Assembly (NCBI RefSeq): GCF_006345805.1
Contig: NC_043020.1
Location: forward strand, 24,180,001-24,244,000
Length of the DNA stretch: 64,000 nucleotides
From: Octopus sinensis
Taxonomy: Eukaryota
Direction: 5' to 3'
Numbering within the stretch: position 1 is the first letter of the stretch; every line of letters begins with the position of its first letter. The notes beneath the pieces were generated by a model that was given only the letters and a program-made list of their open reading frames with translations, was not told the origin of the DNA and searched no databases. Positions 12,235 through 58,700 of the stretch are shown in pieces. A program made the translations under genes and the position numbers.

Positions 12235-12920
12235 GTTTTTTCAATTGCATGAACTAAAAGTCGGAAGGGGGCGGAATAGACTACCTTCATCATCAACTTG
12301 CAGGTAGTAATTTTACCTTGTCCTTATTCTTAGTGCAAGTTTTGAAGAGTGCAGTTCGATCTTAAAATTTATTTTTTCAAAGCTATAATGAAAATGACAA
12401 AGCATATTCAGCATATTTTGCGTTAAGAGTTCAATAAAGGCAACAACGCAACCGAAAGTGCGAAGAATATTAATGCAGTATATAGGAATCGGACAATAAG
12501 CGTAAGCCAGTGTCAACGGTGGTTCCAGAAATTCCGAGCTGGAAACTACAGCCTAAAAGACGAACCTCGTCCTGGAAGAACTGCAGAGCCCGACGAGGAC
12601 GTCCTGCAAAACCTGGTGCAACAAAATCCCATCGGTCATTTGGTCATTTATCGACGCCTGCGTGCCATCAGAAATGTCATCAAATTGGGTCAATGGGTTT
12701 CTTGCAAACTTTCTGAGTTAAATCAAACGCAGAGAGTGAATGTGTGCTCTCTTTGCTGCCACGTCTCACGAATCTGTCTGCTTCGAGTGAATCTCGAAGC
12801 AGACAGATTCATAAATAGCGTGTACAGTATTGGGTCTAAATCCCGTTGAGCAGTCCAAATGTTTTTTAACGCAGTATTGCTTTTAGCTTTGTTTGCTTCG
12901 AGATTCAGTCCCCAAAGTAT
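12230..12920 (+). mobile_element. Mariner-family DNA transposon remnant (transposase N-terminal HTH region)
   Basis: HIQHILR*EFNKGNNATESAKNINAVYRNRTISVSQCQRWFQKFRAGNYSLKDEPRPGR (~12403-12579) and GQWVSCKLSELNQTQRVNVCS (WVPHEL-like). Stops and internal deletions; ends approximate. Confidence 0.85.
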
Positions 12921-15511: not shown

Positions 15512-15925
15512 GTTTGTGCGTATGTATACATATATATATATGTGTGGTGTGTGTATGTATATGTAAGTATATTATTTTATGTAATGTTTTTTTTTATTTT
15601 TTACAACATAAAGCTTTATGATAAGCTTTACGCGCGAAACTCCCACCCCTAGGATTACTTTTGTAACTTTATTACAGTGTAATACACACACACACACACA
15701 TACACACACACAAACGTGCGTAAATATCGAACGATGAAAATGAGACCTGTACACTGCGTTGATGGATAAAATTTCTTTATTTGTGACTTACGACTGCCAT
15801 TGGTTTCATGTTGAGCAAAATAGAAAAGTATTTTAATATCTTAACAATTTTTGTAGTCGATCACATGGAGGAATGGTGTTCGTCTCCATTTTGGATAAAA
15901 GAATTTATATATATATATATATATC

Positions 15926-16137
15926 TACAATAATATGTTACATTACTCGGTAGTCAAGATAAAACTCTGAGTTTCAGATGCCGAAGTGAAAATCCACAAC
16001 ACCATCTCTTCGGTTATCTGGCTAAATATCTGGTTAAATAGCCAGATAACCGAAGAGATGGTGTTGTGGATTTCCACTTCGGCATCTGAAACTCAGAGTT
16101 TCATCTTGACTACCGAGTAATGTAACATATTATTGTA
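15926..16137. repeat. Near-perfect long inverted repeat (99-bp arms, 14-nt spacer, 2 mismatches)
   Basis: 15926-16024 is the reverse complement of 16039-16137 at 97/99 positions. Confidence 0.95.
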
Positions 16138-17095
16138 TAGATAAATTTCCACTATTTACATAATATTGAGGTCCTTTTCTTTCTTTTGTTATATTACCGT
16201 TTTATCAATGTATATATATATATATATATATGATGTCATCGGATAAGCTTATGCATCGCTGATCACAATGCGCTTTGCATCGTTTTAGCCTTCGAATGAT
16301 GTCATTGTGTGGCTCGGCGAGCGGGCCAGCATTCCTCTTGATCTGAAGGCTTTTCCGTCGCATGGTTACACATTTACGGTTGAGTGGACGAGAGCAGCGT
16401 GAAATAAATGGTTTTACTCGACAACACAACGTGCCTTCCGGTTCCGGACTCGAGTCGACCATATAGCCACCATGAATGCTACACCCTTAGCCACTAGGCC
16501 ACTCAGTTGCCACATATATCATCAACTGATGTTCGAATTTAGACTTTTAGGTGAAAATGCCAAGGAAATTTCTATTGGTCATCGAATTTTAGCGATAATT
16601 CTTTGACGCCACTCTTTCACTCTTTCTTCCATCTTTAATCAACGCATCATTTAGCGAATCTGGTCTCGAAGAGCAACTGGGACAATTTCTTTCCCAGACG
16701 GAAACAGAAATGGAGAAAGATTTGCGGATATAATCTGTGGACTGTTTACAAGTTTGAAATAATAAAACCAGATTTAGTAAAGAAACATTTCTTTTTTGTT
16801 GTGGGTAGGGGTTTGTTGTTGTGTGTAATATGCGTGTATGTTTATGCGTCTTTCTCAATATGAATGCGTGTGGTTGCGATTCTGTGTGAATGTGCCAATG
16901 TAAGCGTGTGTATGTGTGTGTAAGAAGATTGTGAGTTAGTGATCATGTTTCTAATACGGTATATACGCCTGGTGTATATATGTGTGTATATCAAGTTCTA
17001 ACAAAAAATATGGCTTACCCAAATCTGTTTTTTCTCTCTGTGTTCATCTAAGATATGTAAGTGTGCGCGTGTGTGTGTGTGTGGGCGTGTGAGTG

Positions 17096-38070: not shown

Positions 38071-38224
38071 CTGACTGAAGTCTCTTTGTCAATCATTTCA
38101 ATCAAATTAAATGGTGAGTAGTTTAGGAAGCCATCGATGACGTATATAATGCCATTACTGCAACCGATGGCGGGGTTGATCAGGTAGAGTCTCTGCATTC
38201 CAAATCCGGCATCGACATAGATAC
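38071..38224 (-). CDS. Internal coding exon C of the fasciclin-domain gene
   Basis: gtctttctctgacag|GT ATC TAT ... TCA GTC AG|gtaatg. 154 nt (phase 1 to 2), (G)[50 protein letters not shown](S). [12 protein letters not shown] is the FAS1 H2 motif (NGxxHxIDxVL-like). Confidence 0.92.
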
Positions 38225-38421
38225 CTGTCAGAGAAAGACACGGATAAACACAAGGATTACAGACAAACGAAAACAGGTACTAAGCTCAACACGACTCTCT
38301 CTCTCTATTGTTTTCGACTTTTTAGCGTGTACGTGTGTGTATGTATGTATGTATATATTTCTATGCATATATATGCGTGTGTATGCAAGTATGATACATA
38401 TACGTGTGCATGTATATATAC

Positions 38422-38493
<72 letters not shown>

Positions 38494-38552
38494 GCACAGA
38501 ATATATAGTTACGTGTGTGCACATGCATATTTAACATATATATATATGAGTA

Positions 38553-38623
<71 letters not shown>

Positions 38624-39190
38624 AGAGAGAGAGAGAGAGGGGTAGAGTATATATATGTGTGTATATGTATATACATGTGTGTATATATCTATATATATGT
38701 ATATATATGTATGTGTATATATATGGATGTATGTATATATGTATGTGTGTATATATGTGTGTATATATATATATATATGTGTATGTATATACATATATAT
38801 ATATGTGTGTGTGTGTTCGTGTATATATGTGCTTGTGTAGATATATATATGCGTATGCACTAAGATATGCCCTAAGAGTCTGTGAGTGCCCATATACATA
38901 GAAATATATGCACGTACATTTGTGTGTAAATGCATAGACATGTATGAATACGTGAATGAATTTTGCAATGTCGTGTTTGTTAACCATCTTATTCTCTGTT
39001 TCTGTTTTTCCGTTTTCAATATATTATTATTATTATCATTATTTTGTTTTCTATATTTACTAGACCAGTTTGTTTTCCATGAATAAACATGTTGACAAAG
39101 GCGAGATAGAAAGAAAAAATGGTCCAGAATGGCAGCTGCCACTAAAACTGTAACAACAACCAAAAAAATGCAGGATTGCAATATCATCAA

Positions 39191-39253
<63 letters not shown>

Positions 39254-39254
39254 C

Positions 39255-39690
39255 ATTTCTACTGGAAGCACGAGGCCTCAAATTTCGGTGAAGGAATAAT
39301 GTCGTTAAAATCGACCCCAGTGCGTAACTGGTACTAAATTTTATCGACCCCAAAAAGGAAGAAAGGCAAAGTTGACCTCGGCGGAATTTGAAGTCAGTAC
39401 GTTGCGGCAGGCGAAATACCTATTTCTTTACTACCCACAAGGGGCTAAATACAGAGAGGACAAACAAGGACAGACAAACGGATTAAGTCGATTACATCGA
39501 CCCCAGTGCGTAATTGGTACTTATTTAATCCACCCCGAAAGGATGAAAGGCAAAGTCGACCTCGGCGGAATTTGAATTCAGAACGTAGCGGCAGGCGAAA
39601 TACCGCTAACAAGTTGAGTACATGGTATTTATTTTATCGACCGTTGTGGAATTTGAACTCAAAACGTAAAGGCCGTGCTAAAGATTCTGC
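39255..39690 (-). mobile_element. SINE family M dimer/cluster
   Basis: Same organisation and junction as 437-833. Confidence 0.85.
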
Positions 39691-39966
39691 TAGATTACTG
39701 CATTAACAACAGATGAAAGAGAATAACAAAGCGAAAAAAAATTGCCTTGCCGTACATGACATCGTACATAACACATTCGATAGTGATCGATGCTGCTTCT
39801 CTGTGGTGGATCGGCTTTTGACAATCAACAGCAAAAATAGCACTTACTAAAAGATCTATCGGCCAGACTCGGTGGCACAGCGTAAATACAGGGTTAAACC
39901 TAAGACACAATATGAACTTATGATGCAAGGGCCGTGCTCAGATTTACAGTAAAATCCCTGGGACTT

Positions 39967-40050
<84 letters not shown>

Positions 40051-40132
40051 TAAATGAAGTACAAGGAAAGGAAAAAATGTAGTTGTAGGCGATCATTAAT
40101 TCATAAACCAGGTTGGTACAGTTCCAGTATAT

Positions 40133-40223
40133 ATTCTACAAATTGTTTCAGAGTCTAATTAATTGCAAAGACAAAAAACGAAAAACACTTCTTGAAATAA
40201 AAATTAGATTCTTCGTCAGGAAT
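40133..40223 (-). ncRNA. Type I hammerhead ribozyme motif with extended stem II
   Basis: Minus strand: AUUC-CUGACGA-A-[GAAUCUAAUU...AAUUAGACUC]-U-GAAA-CAAUUUG-UA-GAAU. Core intact; stem I is AUUC/GAAU. Confidence 0.72.
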
Positions 40224-40677
40224 TACCTATCGGTATGAATAGAAACGACCAACAAAAATATAAAAAGACCTTTCATAGTCCAGACGGGTGTATATAACGG
40301 ATAGAGTTAACTATTGAAGAGGTTGCAAGAAGCATTGAGTGGATTTGTTAATTAATAAGGCATTCGAAAAGGATGAGTCTCCCCAGACACAACAATAGAT
40401 ACACACACATATATATGTATAGCTAATAGTGAAGGATCATCAATCCTAGCAAAATACTTCATAAACTCTCAGTTGGTACACGAGGCTAAAAAAATTATTC
40501 AGATTAGTGAAGAACGCCGAGTATTTCTATGGCAGGGTCCAAGGTTATGGTTCGTGACACTTCTATAAAGTAAATCCGTGGATGGGCTCCAGACCAACTG
40601 GTGTGTGCATTGAGCGATATATAAAACACGTTAAAAATAGTGGCCATTACACATTTTTCTTGTAATGGAGCAAATCT

Positions 40678-40800
40678 GGCTTACAGCCGTTTCCAGTAGT
40701 CATTATAGGTACACTACTGATAGGTTTACTCAGTTGGTCTATTGATCAACTGAGGCAAATTGAACGACCTAAAACAATTAATGCTACTTTCGTCAGAGCC
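40678..40800 (-). ncRNA. Type I hammerhead ribozyme motif with extended stem II
   Basis: Minus strand: GGCU-CUGACGA-A-[AGUAG...long nested hairpin...CUACU]-G-GAAA-CGGCUG-UA-AGCC. Core C3-A9, GAAA and the UH site are intact; stem I is GGCU/AGCC. Confidence 0.75.
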
Positions 40801-42796
40801 ATGTTTGGTTATAACAAGCAAAGTACTGAAGGAATGGTGAGTGCATGGGGGAGGAAGGAAAGTTTGCAAAAATTATTTCAATATATATATTGAAATAATC
40901 TCCGAACCAAATTTCCTTCAACAACGAGTAACAAGGTCGTACCAGGATGTTGGCGCTGTTTGTTTTTCTTTAGACTCTGTTATAACCAGAGAGAGCTGGT
41001 CATTGGTTAATTGTTTTCCAGACATAACTAGTGTGTCATAACAATCCCGCCTTCATCTCTCTCTCTATTTCTATTCTCTCCCCTCCCCTCATCACCCTCT
41101 CTTCGTCTCTCTCTCTCTCCCTCCATCTTTATATATCTCTCTCCTCTCTCTGCGCTCTTATTCTCCCGCCCCTCTTTCTCGTTCTCTCCTCCCCTCTTTC
41201 TCTGTTCCCTTCTCCTTCAGTACTTCCTACTTGTAACCGCTACTCATCAAATCACCACTTCTCTCTCTCTCATCCTACCAGAACTTCTCAAAGAATGTTA
41301 TAAAATAGAGACACAGAGGAAGATGAGGAAATAAAGAACAGGAGAGAATAAAAGAATAAGAGAATAAGACAGAAAGTGTGTGCGGGGTTGAACGGAGAAA
41401 GAAAGAAGGCCGGATGTTGTTTATAATCAATGTCGTCTGGCTCTCAATATATTTCCCATCGTATGGTGGCGTCAGTGTCATTTGGTGTCACTGTTTGGCC
41501 GAATGTCAGAAAAATAGATACCAGGTCGATGACCAGTTTATGAGAGAAACTCTACGTGGTCGCTTTAGCTGCTAGAAACAGCATACAAATGTCCCCCAAA
41601 TTATAGTTGCTGGTTTTAAGAAACAGGACGGTATGCACATGGCTGCAACTACATTGGTAACAGGTCTATCTGATTGTGACTGAACTATGGCTAAATAACT
41701 ATAATGAGCAGGTTCACTTCGAGGTAGTTAGGGGATGCTATTTCTAGCATGTTACGCAACCTCCTAGAAATAGCACTCAGATTCCTTTCAACTCAGATGC
41801 TGCTATCTTAAATTGGGATTTAACACAATATGCTATGAAACCCTCTTTATAGAAACTAAAGAGAGCGTCAGGGCTGAAGGAGCTTTCATCATAGGTCATC
41901 TCGTTCGTGGCTGGCCTGGGGCTAAAACAGGAACAGCAGCCATGTTTAATTACAGACATATGTCTTTGTTAATGAATAATTAATGATAATCAATGGCGTC
42001 TTTGGAATAAATTCGTGCGTGTCCCCCCCCCTCAATACATATGAGAATGAGGGAATAGTCAGAAAGCATTTTTTCAAGATAAACATTATTTCTAGGATGA
42101 AGTGGCGGAGTGCCAGAATCATTACAGCACTGGATAAAAGGTCACGGTTGTTTTTCATTCCGAGTTCAAATGATGGAGTTTAAATTTGCCATTCATTCCC
42201 CCAAGGTCAATGAAGAACCAGCCAAGTACTTGAGTCAATGATATTAACTACTCGCTTCTCCTAAAAATTGCTGGCTCTGTGCCAAAATTAGAAACAGATA
42301 AGTATTTTTAACATAGAGATAAGATCACATATTTAGTGGAAAGAACTGTCGATTACATTCGCCCGTGGAATTGGAAATAAACGGTAAAATTTACTTAGGG
42401 AACTTGTGGTGTTCAAACCCTCGTCCTTCCAGCGCAATAGTTATTTTTTTAATGTTTTACAAAATGCTATAAATTTACGGATGGAGAACAATGAAATATA
42501 TCGCTTTCATAATAAAAACTGGTGGCTCTTCTATGGAGACCGGAAGGATACAAGATGAATTCGACCTCTGCCAGATTTGAACACCCAGCGTAACTAAATA
42601 CAGTGTTAATCTGTGTGTCCCTACAATAGATCTTCTTTGACGGTCACACATACAGACTGACATGTTGTTATATGACCTGTACCATGTACATCACGTCTTT
42701 GACTCAGATAAACACATCAAACCACATATGTACACCTACATACACCTTCGACACACTCCATATATGCATACTGATACATACACAAGAGAGAGAGAG

Positions 42797-42852
<56 letters not shown>

Positions 42853-43469
42853 ATAAACAAACAAACAAGCAAGCAATCTGTAGTTTAGTATTCAGCAAGA
42901 TATGGCTACCAAATCTTCAATACTGAATTCCAAGCACGGTATACTGTAAATCCGCCATTAAAATCCGTCTTGCATTACCATTCTGTCTGTCTGTCTGTTT
43001 ATCTACCTATCTATCTACCCACCTATCTCGCACAAAGATATATATATATATATATATATATATATCTTTTCTCTTCTTTTTATATATCAGTCTACTGTAT
43101 TTGTTCGCTCCCCACCCCGACCTCTTCTGTGTTCTCCATCTTAGAAAAAGATATTCAAAGTGAGATGGATTTCCCTACAGATCATCGATTATCATGGATA
43201 AAACAAATATATGGAAGGCTGATGTTGCTATTGGTGGTGGTGGTGGGGGTGATAATGATATGTATATAGAAAGAGTATATAACCTGTGTGGTAATGACAC
43301 GAACGCGTCGATGGTGTGGTCGTGTGGTTGAGGAGTCCGTTTCGTAATCACGAGTTTCTGAGTTCGAACAACTTTTATATTTCCTCGAATAAAATCGGGT
43401 TGGCCCGAACAGCCAGCTGGTACGATTTCATCAACACAAATAGTGTGGAAATTCGTCATATATATATAT

Positions 43470-43870
43470 TCTCTTTTACTCTTTTACTTGTTTCAGTAAT
43501 TTGACTGTGGCCATGCTGGAGCACTGCCTTTCGAGCAAATCGACCTCAAGACTTATTCTTTGTAAGCCTAGTACTTATTCTATCATTCTCTTTTGCCGAT
43601 CCGCTAAGTTACGGGGACGTAGACACACTAGCATCGGTTGTCAAGCGATGTTGGGGTGGAGAAGCACAGACACACAAACATATACACACACATATACATA
43701 TATATACGACAAGCTTCTTTCAGTTTCCGTCTACCAAATCCACTCACAAGGCTTTGGTCGACCCAAGGCTATAGTAGAAGACACTTGCCCAAAGTGCCAC
43801 GCAGTGGGACTGAACCCGGAACCATGTGGTTGGTAAACAAGCTACTTGCAACACAGCTACTCCTACGCCT
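43470..43870 (-). mobile_element. SINE family C full-length copy
   Basis: Reverse complement aligns end to end with 60052-60458. Confidence 0.9.
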
Positions 43871-44229
43871 ATATATGTTGCCATGCTTGACCGCTAAATC
43901 CACAAGTTTTCTTTTTATTATCTCTGCTAACGTTCTTTTTCCTTTCTGTTAAAGAGCGTAGGCTTGAAACGTAAAAGACTTGTTCTCTTTCCCGAGCGTC
44001 AAACTATTACACCTGATTGTTGCTCATACACCTGACTTCGTTCTGTTGTTTTTCTATAAATTTCATCTAATATATGTTCAACTTGAAGGAGTGTAATAGG
44101 CGAAATCCAGGCTATCTATGTTTCCTAGCTAGCAGATCTAATATATTACTCAACGAGGTGTGCTAAGCTAGATACTTCCTACACTTAGGTCCATGGATTT
44201 TTCAATTACAAATCAATAGTATATACGAT

Positions 44230-44276
<47 letters not shown>

Positions 44277-44404
44277 TGTGTGTGTGCATGCGTGCACGTG
44301 GGTTTATATATGTATACATAATGCCAGTATTTGACCGAACAGATAACACAGGCAAATAGTCAATGTGCTGAAATGCCGATTTGTTTCAACTCGGTGACGC
44401 TGTT

Positions 44405-45330
44405 CAACTTGAACTAGCAAAATCGTTACCGTGGCGGACAAAATGTACAGCGACATTTCTTCCGATTTTACGGTCTACGGTAAAATTCTACCGGGTTCGA
44501 CTTTGCTTTTCATTCTTTCGGAGTTCATAAAATAAGTACCAGTTGCACACTGGGGCCGATGTAATCGACTGATACCCTCCCCCGAAATTACTGGCCTTGC
44601 GCCAAACTTCGAAACCACTATTTACTGCTGGTGTTCTATGTACGTCATGTGATCGGAATGGTAAGAAGAGTGGAGCACTGGATGTGCTCTGCAGGATGTC
44701 TAAGATGCGTATCAACGACTATAATGAAAACAATGAGGTAACTGCAGTGCGAAGACAAGATCAATAAGAACCAAGAGAACAGCAAGTGTGGTTGGGAATT
44801 TTGGCACAAAACTATCAGTATGGAAGAGGAAGTCGATTACGTTGATTCCAAAAGGATGAAAGGCGGAGTCGACATGGACAAAATTTGAACTCAATAATGA
44901 AAATAATGGCTTCAAATTTTAGCACAAGGCCAGCAACTTCAAGGGAGAGGGTTAGTCGATTACAACGACCTATTAGCCTTCAACGGGTGCTTGCTTTATC
45001 GGGCCCGAAAGGGTGAAAGATAAAGTCAACATTGGAGGAATTTGAACTCAAAACATAAGGACGGACGAAGTACCGCTAAGAATTTCGCCCTGCGTGCTAA
45101 CGATTCTGCTAGCTCACCGCCTTAATAATAATCCCTTATGCTAGAGGCACAGGGCCTGAAATTTTCGGAGGAGGTGGGTTGTCGAGAGTATCTACCTCAG
45201 TAACCAAATGGTACTTAATTGGTCGACTCCAAAAGAATGAAAGGGAATCTGTCCGAGGTGGAATTTGAGTTCAGAACATAAAAACGGACGAAATGTGGCG
45301 CGGTAACGATTCTGCCGGTTTCGCCGCTCT
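44405..45330. mobile_element. Cluster of four SINE family M copies (one plus, three minus)
   Basis: Repeated central domain and B-box-like motif. Confidence 0.8.
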
Positions 45331-45419
45331 GAGGACAAAATCAATAAAAGCGAAAACACTGCAGACAACTACCACTGCAACAATAACATCAATGACGATG
45401 ATAATACATAAGATTTAAA

Positions 45420-45710
45420 GGGTAAAGGGTAAAAAGCCCCTTCGGTCATGAATGACCATGGGATTGTACCTAGAAAGTTTACCTCCGAGACACAAGTACA
45501 AGCAGGGTTGTTTATGGAAGACCAGCAGTCGCTCATGCATGCCATGTCACCAATCTTATCCAAGGGAAAGGCAAAGGCTGATACAGCTTGACACCAGTGA
45601 CGTTGCAACTGATTTCTACAGCTGAGTGAACACACAGCCAGGATCGGGAATTAAACTCACTACCTCATGATTGTGAGCCCGACGCTCTAACCATTGAGCC
45701 ATGCGCCTTC
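45420..45710 (-). mobile_element. tRNA-derived SINE with a TTTACC-type tail
   Basis: Minus head AAGGCGCATGGCTCAATGGTTAGAGCGTCGGG; the tail region aligns with 63320-63630. Confidence 0.75.
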
Positions 45711-45742
45711 ACATAAGATTAGGTTGAAATAACTTCACTCAC

Positions 45743-45872
45743 CACCGATGTTATTCCGGAAGATTTTGAAGGATATATTAAACTGGTTTTTGATGACACA
45801 TTTTTTCCTTAATCTTGAACGGAGGTACTTCCAGTCCAGGCGTGAATTCTGCACCACGTGACCTGCAAATAT
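45743..45872 (-). CDS. Internal coding exon B of the fasciclin-domain gene
   Basis: ttttcttctccccag|ATA TTT GCA GGT CAC GTG GTG ... ATC GGT G|gtgagt. 130 nt (phase 0 to 1), IFAGHVVQNSRLDWKYLRSRLRKKCVIKNQFNISFKIFRNNIG. GHVV matches the FAS1 [FY]H motif position. Confidence 0.88.
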
Positions 45873-46240
45873 CTGGGGAGAAGAAAAATAGCTATTAAGT
45901 AACAAATAAAAGTTTACAAAGAATATGATTCATTTTACTAAAATAGAAGTAAAAACGAAACAAAATTATAGTCCAAAACATGTGCTTCACGTTTGAGAAG
46001 AGACTCTCAATACAGTAGCTTAAGTGGCTAGAAATGGCTGCAAAATGTCATCGGTCAGGCTTACATCGTAGAGAGAGAGAGAGAGAGAGCTAACCTAGGA
46101 GATACAGGATGAGTGCAAAGCATGCAATAAGTAAATAAACGCTACGCGCCGGATCAAGATAGAAGTGTGTCGGTGGGTAAAAGGATGAGGGTGAGAGATA
46201 AGGCGAGTGCGCGTATGAGGACTTAATATGAAATCAACCA

Positions 46241-55789: not shown

Positions 55790-58700
55790 ACTAAAAAATC
55801 TGAGAATTATTCACGTAGGATTCCGCCCCTGTATGGGCGAAATTACCAAAAGTTTCAAAACTTTCGTGGTTTCTTTTTAGCCATTTTTCATTTTTGAAAA
55901 TGGCAACTGGAAACAACGTGACGAGCCCGCCAGTCATGCAGAACGGTAGCGAAACACTATTTCTACCATTAGCTGCTAAACCTCGCAGCTTGAACACCGC
56001 TGTCAGCACCACCACCACTACCAACAACAACAACAACAACAAAATTAACGTCGCAAGACCATTCACCATCGCCGCCACCAAAGACATTAACTTAGATTTT
56101 CCCCACTCCCTACACCACTTGTCGATGAAAGAAGGACGGAGAAAGGGATTTCAAAAACGATTACAGACTCAAACATGAATGCCAGTACCACCACCAACAA
56201 CAACAACGAAATCAGCACAAAGCGCCTACCAAAGACAACACCAACACCACTACCACGACTTCAACTGCTACAACTAACTCCACTGCCACTAATACCAACC
56301 AAAAATAGAACAAACTTCGCGGAAGCCATAAAACAAAAACGGTCAATCGTAAAATTTACCGCACAGGAAATAAACCTCACAAAGGCACTGGATCTCAAAG
56401 TAAAGACAATATTCGTAGACCCGAAGGGTAGACTGGTCGTCCTGGATGTCGACAGCAGCAATGGGTGCGGTTTTCGACTCGTATCAGTCTACGCACCGCC
56501 TTTAACAGGTCGGACGGATTTCTTTCAACGTCTAGAAGTATTCATGGGAACGTCTCGTCCTTTACTCTTAGTGGGGGATTGGAATGCTACCTTGGACACG
56601 CATGTAGATTACGTGGGCAGAGATAGGAATAGAAGGGGATGCAAATGCCTCAGAGACCTGCTCAGACGCTTTCAACTGTCTGACAGGTACCGACTCGACC
56701 ACCCGAATGCGCCAACGTGGACATGGAGCAACCGCATCGGGTCGTCGAAACCGTATCTAGATAGGATACTGTGTAGGACAGTAGATAGAGATAGCGTAGG
56801 ATGTTCATAATTCCACATAGTCAGCTACACGGATCACAAACTTGTGACATGTACGCTAGACTTAGGTATGACACATAGGCAGGGATACTGGAAGCTAAAC
56901 GCGTCTTTCCCATCGAGACAGGTTTTCAGAGACCGGATTAGCACACTAGTAAAGAGGGCTTTGACGGGAGCCATCATCAACAACAAATGGTGGTTTGCCC
57001 TCAAGAGAGCAGTAAAAGCAGAAGCGATTAAGTATGGCAAAGCACTATCCATAGATAGAAACATAGTAGAGGGTGAGCTAGTTAAGAAGCTAGAAGAGGC
57101 AATTAGAAGCGGCATCGCATCCGACGTTTTGGCGGCGAGGTTGGCCCTCGACCAACACTTCAACGCCAAACACGAAGGTTGTGTTGTCAGAGGTAGGATG
57201 CGTGCTCTAAGGAACGAAGGTGTTGGAGCCGTGAGAGAGGCCCGGGTGGCAGAGGCGCAATAGGGCAACAAAGCCACCATTCGGTCTCTGGTAGATGAAC
57301 AGGGGCGCGAATTGCGCGAGCCAAGTAAAATGTGTGAGGCCTTTCAGCAGCATTTTACCCGACTGTTCGGGACGAGTGGCGGGCAAGAAGAACGTAAGGT
57401 GGATTCAGTGCCTACATACACAGCCTACCACGACTCTCGACAAGAGAGGCAAGACGCTGCGAAGGTGCCATCACGGCGGCGGAAGTGCAAGACGCGATGG
57501 CAGGATGCTCGAGGGACAAATCGCTGGGTTTGGATGGTCTACCCTACGAGCTTTACAGTTATATGCCAGACTTGTTTGGAGACGTCTTGGCAGCGGTGTA
57601 CTGCAACTGGCAGCGGTGTACTGCAACTGGCAGCAAAACGGGAGTATTCCTGGTTTTGTGAGCCAAGGAGCCGTAACACTGCTGAAGAAGGATCTAAACA
57701 AGGGGAATGTAATAGATAACTTTAGGCCCATCACTCTGCTTAATGCAGACTTGAAAATTTTGGCCAAGGTGTTAGCCAAGAGGTTGGCGCTTGTCATCGA
57801 GAAACTGGTCGACAAGGCGCAAACGTGCGCTGTGCCGGGTCGGAGCATCCATGACAACCTTCACCTGATGAGCTACATCATAGACAGGGTAGTTAATGAA
57901 CCTGGCATGGGTGGTGCGCTGATCAATTTGGATCAATCGAAAGCTTTCGATAGGGTAGACCATCGATACTTGGAGGCTGTCCTCAGAGCGGCTGGTTTCG
58001 GTCCCGTCTTCCACGGCTTGATAGCTGCTTTGTACAGAGGCATCCGTTCGGTAATTCGCGTACATGGACATCATACCGAGATTTTCGACATCGCACGTTC
58101 GGTCCGTCAGGAATGCCCCCTCTCGTCGCTTCTCTACGTATTGATTCTCGAGCCATTATTATGGAAGCTTGCAACTCTGAGAGGCATCCCACGAGAATTG
58201 GGATGCGGGACGAGCATGTCTGCATACGCGGACGACGTCACCGTCATAGTGTCTAGCCACGAGCACATCGAGCGTGTCGGCGAGACACTGAAAGACTACG
58301 AAGCGGTGACAGGAGCGAAAATCAACCAGGAAAAATCAGTGGGCTTGCGACTCGGCACTTGGAGAAGCAAGCCCATGCTGTCCACCAACGCCTCCGTCGT
58401 GGGACGCTGGACCGACAGTCCGGTCGAGTTGCTTGGGGTCTGGTTTGGTCCGGACCTCCAATTGGAGAAAAACTGGAACGAGATAACGAGCAGGGTGGTC
58501 ACTCTCGCCCGGCAATGGGCAGAGAGGAAACTGTCCCTAAAAGGTCGGGCGGAGGTGGCGAACTCGTACATCGCGTCCGTCATCTACTACCGCCTGACCG
58601 TCGTGGCCAAACTAGAACGCATTCTCTTTCGCTTCTAGTGGAAAGGATGCGTCCCGATGGTCAGGCGATCCATTAGCTGTCAACACCCGTAAAAGGGAGG

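Follow-up and report, generated by a model that had tools for sequence, protein, structure and literature searches.

Two hammerhead motifs in an intron of a fasciclin-1-like gene

The window, by which we mean the whole 64-kb stretch of Octopus sinensis DNA that was analysed, contains four exons of a host gene on its minus strand (about 62421-62261, 45874-45743, 38224-38071 and 2552-2382). They match protein P0001, which is fasciclin-1 of Octopus bimaculoides in the NCBI naming. Two type I hammerhead motifs, A and B, are located in one intron of this gene and on its sense strand (Table 1); the placement in a fasciclin pre-mRNA intron, proposed in an earlier note on this DNA, thus holds.

Table 1. 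Features of the host gene and of the two hammerhead loci in the window.
Feature	Position	Strand	Remarks
Upstream host exon	45743..45874	minus	exon match and contig junctions
Intron of the fasciclin-1-like gene holding A and B	38225..45742	minus	GT-AG, 7,518 nt
5′-truncated copy, probable Penelope-like family A	40405..40861	minus	hammerhead-bearing 3′ end (40861 to about 40617) and optional extension to about 40405
Hammerhead A (type I)	40677..40801	minus	core CUGACGA ... GAAA ... UA
Stem II domain of A, nested arms	40694..40789	minus	z = -3.2 when folded alone
Third, unrelated dispersed repeat, about 75 nt	40345..40420		between A and B
5′-truncated 3′ end, probable Penelope-like family B	40050..40290	minus	runs into microsatellite
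Hammerhead B (type I)	40133..40223	minus	core CUGACGA ... GAAA ... UA
(TATC)n(TA)n microsatellite	39967..40050		at the 3′ end of B
Downstream host exon	38071..38224	minus	FAS1-type motif NGIIYVID

The exons flanking the intron are joined in contigs of three of the four RNA-type runs (two studies), that is, they were spliced across both motifs; in run X6 these exons are not covered. The RNA nature of the runs is our guess, but the exon junction has splice ends. The spliced contigs show that mRNA is made and are compatible with cutting of some fraction of the transcripts. All sequencing data are contigs, and RNA ends at the cut sites are therefore not visible. Runs X4 and X5, which carry other organism labels, have a 5′ flank with 0 differences over 329-358 nt, and for this reason they do not provide a test of motif conservation. 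A G>C change at window position 45822 in the upstream exon, found in contigs of three RNA-type runs, is probably an allele.

Both motifs have the type I core (C3U4G5A6-N-G8A9, G12A13A14A15.1 and U16.1-H17) with three helices and an open stem I, and all 11 core letters are kept in both window copies. Stem I of A has 5 bp (UGGCU, 40801-40797, with AGCCA, 40681-40677) and is followed by CUGACGA (40796-40790), a stem II domain of 96 nt, GAAA, helix III and UA. Helix III reads CGGCUG in the window and CAGCUG in most family A copies. In B a stem I of 4 bp (AUUC, 40223-40220, with GAAU, 40136-40133) encloses CUGACGA (40219-40213), a stem II domain of 63 nt (40212-40150), GAAA, CAAUUUG and UA. The predicted cut sites, 40682/40681 in A and 40137/40136 in B, are 545 nt apart. 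The coordinates agree with the earlier note on the places of the two motifs, on this distance, on stems II of about 60 and 95 nt and on the nested arms in the larger of them.

Neither motif begins stem II with the G10.1-C11.1 pair: the domain of A opens with an A·G mismatch, which is present in all 14 family A hits, and in family B the base is A-U in the window copy, A·C in most copies and G-C in one older copy. When folded alone, the stem II domain of A stands out (z = -3.2 and -3.7) and that of B is unremarkable (-0.95 and -1.2).

Scanning both strands of the window with a type I descriptor returned A and B as the sole matches, which confirmed the two motifs. The same descriptor found one hit in 14 of 200 block-wise dinucleotide shuffles of the window and two hits in none (0/200). 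An Rfam search did not find them: no hammerhead reached the gathering score in the window, and none was reported at E up to 10 in 39900-41100. The length of stem II is the likely cause of this miss.

The repeat search of the window was dominated by microsatellites. An upstream intron contains a broken LINE with frames for AP endonuclease (PF03372) and reverse transcriptase (RT; PF00078) antisense to the host gene (56091-58638, plus strand). A frame at 12427-12846 (plus strand) resembles the N-terminus of a mariner transposase, and an inverted repeat with 108-nt arms, 95% complementary and 14 nt apart, is located at 15917-16146. High-copy short repeats at 39295-39700 and 43330-43870, presumably SINE-like, have a very high summed depth in RNA-type contigs.

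Two dispersed families with traits of Penelope-like elements

Comparison with the 2.72-Gb genome gave 1153 first-look candidates for the A stretch and 253 for the B stretch, of which 40 per family were scored; these candidate numbers are not copy numbers. Identity among the 39 other best places was 82-89% for A and 84-91% for B. No B match was found within 1.5 kb of other A loci (0/29) and no hammerhead A match at other B loci (0/29). A and B are two separate dispersed families. The third repeat gave 429 first-look candidates with 78-90% identity, mostly at query positions 1-83 of 131.

In both families the copies share their 3′ ends and break off unevenly at the 5′ side; inverted 5′ pieces, partial tandems and microsatellite borders also occur. 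The 3′ limits of family A copies fall into two groups, around 40617-40650 and around 40390-40430. Some copies continue past the first (TA)n patch with an optional 3′ extension, which measures about 220 nt in A (window 40617-40405) and about 110 nt in B (L032, L036, L045-L047 and L060); these extensions are longer than the 30-40-bp tails described for Penelope-like elements (PLEs). An ORF start in these extensions was considered and rejected, as the N-terminal RT profile did not match (best E 0.44). At L038:1750-2700 (plus strand) a second Hydra-type RT fragment (SDKTG, MGSSDS) lies in (TA)n right behind the family B end. One family A place (L012, L016 and L023; G000:C6:29526800-29527447) consists of three head-to-tail units of 221 nt that are 99% alike; each spans the hammerhead, and in the aligned copies the core is intact and helix III reads CAGCUG. 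Two such units could pair in cis as a homodimer, and the array might be retrozyme-like, a local duplication or an assembly artefact. Such units were present in one of the 27 distinct other family A places examined.

Longer copies of both families contain remnants of a GIY-YIG endonuclease (EN) 1-2 kb upstream of the hammerhead, which supports the earlier assignment of the motifs to the Penelope type. Pfam returned this domain below its cut-off (E = 0.0044), and a profile of 22 homologues gave E values of 1e-25 to 1e-41; a protein search with the B endonuclease fragment (78-251 aa) gave no match. Walking upstream from family B reached the GIY-YIG-type frame, and the hammerhead-B stretch is located 1.0-1.5 kb downstream on the same strand in four of the ten best endonuclease loci (L181, L183, L184 and L188). 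L181 and L183 also contain RT remnants, the latter with an inverted 5′ copy; RT and EN remnants of this family are present at L181, L183 and L187. The hammerhead-A stretch, whole or in part, lies downstream on the same strand in 4 of 30 endonuclease/3′ UTR loci (L232, L233, L234 and L240), in six of the 30 the 5′ side carries an inverted copy, and genome coordinates add two further links (L223 with L002, L230 with L015). At L111 an endonuclease remnant lies beyond a microsatellite, upstream of family A; this stretch was the query that yielded the 30 loci. Only EN and linker, and no RT, were linked to family A, and no full-length element of A or B was recovered; the ORF remnants of both are nearly all broken. 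A reading of family A as non-autonomous, with one defined 5′ start, was rejected, since what looked like that start comes after a microsatellite within the 3′ UTR.

Several motifs in these remnants point to the Hydra clade. The linker CxCX5C was found in A (L225, L230, L231 and L233) and in B (L181 and L187). CxxC and CxH around the conserved E and N, with no Cys pair between GIY and YIG, are present in both families (L130, L135, L232 and L233). Insertion into (TA)n and a hammerhead near the 3′ end were observed as well. The RT N-terminus of a related younger family (L192) has RWL and SDKT, the clade motifs being RWK and DKT. Passages of Craig et al. 2021 (PMC8557442) list CxCX5C, CxxC..E..N..CxH and the missing Cys pair in GIY-YIG as Hydra-clade features and give microsatellites as targets of these elements. 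A and B are two families of Penelope-like retrotransposons, likely of the Hydra clade, a clade assignment that rests on motifs. The Neptune clade, considered first, was rejected on the motif test.

The younger Hydra-type family (L191 (2048-2102, minus strand), L192 and L195) has open RT-EN frames of 650-750 aa with about 82-90% amino-acid identity between copies. A long Asn/Ser-rich stretch takes the place of the CxCX5C linker, and a hammerhead with a 55-nt stem II follows 0.6-0.9 kb behind the ORF.

Decay of the copies and predicted cutting

To the alignments 27 A and 30 B sequences contributed, including the window copies (L001 and L031) and leaving out L009, L016 and L023, which are truncated or overlapping; the copies were picked by likeness to the window, which biases the resulting counts. 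They differ by about 7% from the commonest letters. With CpG columns set aside, the core changed at 4.5% compared with 7.4% in unpaired columns in A (p = 0.10) and at 4.6% compared with 6.7% in B (p = 0.23); the core conservation in paralogs that the earlier note had asked about thus shows no significant excess. Two observations count against a reading as decay: stem columns of B changed less than unpaired ones (3.8% vs 6.7%, p = 0.005, one of four tests), and the four letters closing helix III of A are invariant in 27 rows. Of the other copies, 16 of 26 in A and 12 of 29 in B retain the complete 11-letter core. Since intact cores are common among the copies, those in the window give no sign of selection.

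Stem covariation, the second check proposed for the paralogs, did not rise above shuffles within A or B: pairs with two-sided changes numbered 3 in A (3.1 expected in shuffles) and 0 in B (0.2 expected). This is expected of dead copies. Across 22 clusters the stems differ in sequence, but the scan had required pairing. In the RNAalifold folds of A1 and A2 the hammerhead does not appear. Altogether, the copies fit decaying copies of once-functional master sequences, and nothing points to a function of A or B in the fasciclin gene.

In the folding models, whose energies leave out tertiary contacts, co-transcriptional folding and proteins, the monomeric hammerhead fold is predicted to lie 8.3-11.4 kcal/mol (A) and 6.9-7.2 kcal/mol (B) above the free ensemble, and 4-16 kcal/mol above it in 16 other A copies. 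In the predicted minimum-energy fold of A, the 3′ strand at the base of stem II is instead paired in a competing 7-bp hairpin (40719-40694); in the window copy this hairpin is strengthened, and the palindrome has two G·U pairs. Double hammerheads require that the stem I strands and helix III pair across two copies. Predicted helix III duplex energies are -9.7 kcal/mol for A:A, -4.1 for B:B and -0.2 for A:B, and in the model the cross stem I of A and B fails to pair (outward from the core |xx||| and x|xxx|). A with A and B with B are thus predicted to dimerise, and A with B is not. The legend to Fig. 1 in Cervera and de la Pena 2014 (PMC4209133) is consistent with the cross-copy model, and that paper reports inactive monomers and weak dimers.

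We conclude that A and B are very probably the 3′ ends of two Penelope-like families that were inserted separately and are now passive, decaying relics; very likely, the motifs once worked on tandem RNAs of their elements and are mostly inactive in the intron. Each copy would have arisen by target-primed reverse transcription that began at the 3′ end of the element and stopped early. In an active element, the hammerhead would cut the tandem element RNA as a homodimer formed through the palindromic helix III, probably helped by an element protein. In the intron, each single copy has a helix III of 2-3 bp, is predicted to misfold and would have no compatible partner in cis. Such copies would be expected to cut the fasciclin pre-mRNA little or not at all.

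The relics, though unselected, might not be quite inert, with one copy weakly cutting a small part of the pre-mRNA after pairing in trans with other RNAs of its family or with the help of an element protein. This would more likely be A than B, because helix III of A still self-pairs. Such cutting is rather unlikely: the cores are intact and in sense orientation, the A:A duplex is predicted to be stable at the energy given above, and RNA-type contigs resembling the family exist, but trans dimers need a high local concentration, A has the strengthened hairpin and the two G·U pairs, and the spliced product is present in two studies. Protein-assisted cleavage was shown for another PLE hammerhead, which according to Frangieh et al. 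2024 (PMC11167929) cut only with the element protein, could be dispensed with for insertion in vitro and gave no read ends at the site of cutting; the ORF remnants of A and B, however, are nearly all broken.

The earlier note had gone further and proposed that the pair could cut a 545-nt RNA out of the intron. The geometry stands, in that the intact cores are on the same strand at that distance; the excision is not supported, because cross pairing of stem I and helix III fails in the models and the families are unlinked in 29 + 29 other loci. A selected host function in which A and B act in cis and release this RNA co-transcriptionally is therefore very improbable. The third repeat separates A from B, and chance alone would leave both cores intact in roughly one such pair in four (16/26 x 12/29). 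An unrelated hammerhead hit lies within 1.5 kb at 6 of 56 other A/B loci, and such hits are on the same strand within 600 nt at 2 of 56, so close pairs of this kind also occur elsewhere. To a non-LTR retrozyme, that is, a non-coding tandem unit with circular RNA formed by hammerhead cleavage, we give almost no weight. The 221-nt array at L012 would suit it, but this is one place in 27, longer copies run into endonuclease ORFs, and in the window the two families are represented by a single copy each, in line with the earlier view that the two motifs are no simple retrozyme tandem.

Long stem II domains in octopus hammerheads

In class, clade and layout the motifs resemble hammerheads already in print, also for the octopus genus; what is new is the length of stem II. 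File S2 of PMC8557442, the only paper that our search for hammerhead ribozyme, Penelope and Octopus returned, lists among its rows Hydra-clade hammerheads including Hydra-1_Obim from Octopus bimaculoides. Like A and B, the hammerheads described there are in sense orientation near the 3′ end, read CUGANGA-N-stem II-N-GAAA, have a palindromic C..G helix III of mostly 6-7 nt and an N·N at the base of stem II; the elements likewise have a C-terminal GIY-YIG without the CCHH Cys pair, CxCX5C, CxxC and CxH, and (TA)n ends. In contrast, stem II measures 12-26 nt by our count in 26 Hydra-clade rows of File S2, compared with domains of 96 nt in A and 63 nt in B. A and B also differ from these elements in a 3′ UTR of 1-2 kb and in the decayed look of both families, and their hammerhead sequences differ from the one listed for Hydra-1_oBim. 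In File S2, two PLE-X1 hammerheads of Selaginella have a stem II of about 50 nt (our count), still below 63-96 nt; these belong to endonuclease-less, 28S-targeting elements of a plant and have non-canonical stems.

Published type I hammerheads share with A and B a stem I of 4-5 bp and a palindromic helix III, and they too are mostly single dispersed copies of truncated elements with inverted pairs nearby. In these, helix II has 6-8 bp, a further base follows A9 and the G10.1-C11.1 pair is conserved, whereas the base of stem II is A·G in A and A·C or A-U in B and the domain is several times longer. Non-LTR retrozymes of animals, as described in parts of PMC7229834 and bioRxiv 10.64898/2026.07.22.740005, are likewise type I and related to PLE pLTRs; they are tandem repeats of one unit, whereas A and B occur once each in the window and belong to different families with linked ORFs.

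Long domains are not restricted to A and B. Among 53 distinct hits in 22 clusters, taken from 0.95 Mb of overlapping and PLE-biased loci in which single hits may include chance matches, other stems II measured 43, 44, 46, 51, 52, 55, 68, 69 and 76 nt, and short ones 12-31 nt. In octopus, Hydra-type elements bear hammerheads whose stem II domain is 43-96 nt long and which Rfam misses. The literature found contains no report of such long stem II domains, with the limit that Lunse et al. 2016 or the supplements to PMC4209133 may list long variants. Published descriptors may have capped the length of stem II, and cephalopod ribozyme counts are probably too low.

We regard it as quite improbable that stem II of the octopus Hydra-clade elements has become a long folded domain which holds the ribozyme inactive as long as no element protein or second copy is bound. 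Were it so, intronic sense copies would be switchable cut sites in host pre-mRNAs, and retroelement activity would trigger cutting of many nascent transcripts. Gating of cleavage by the long domains would also help to explain the purpose of PLE hammerheads. In the younger family, 14 pairs follow one another without a break in the 55-nt stem II of L191 (z = -5.6). Another hammerhead, with a 43-nt stem II, CACCGUG and UU, is present twice on one strand, at L187:1038 and 1596 (plus strand), 558 nt apart.
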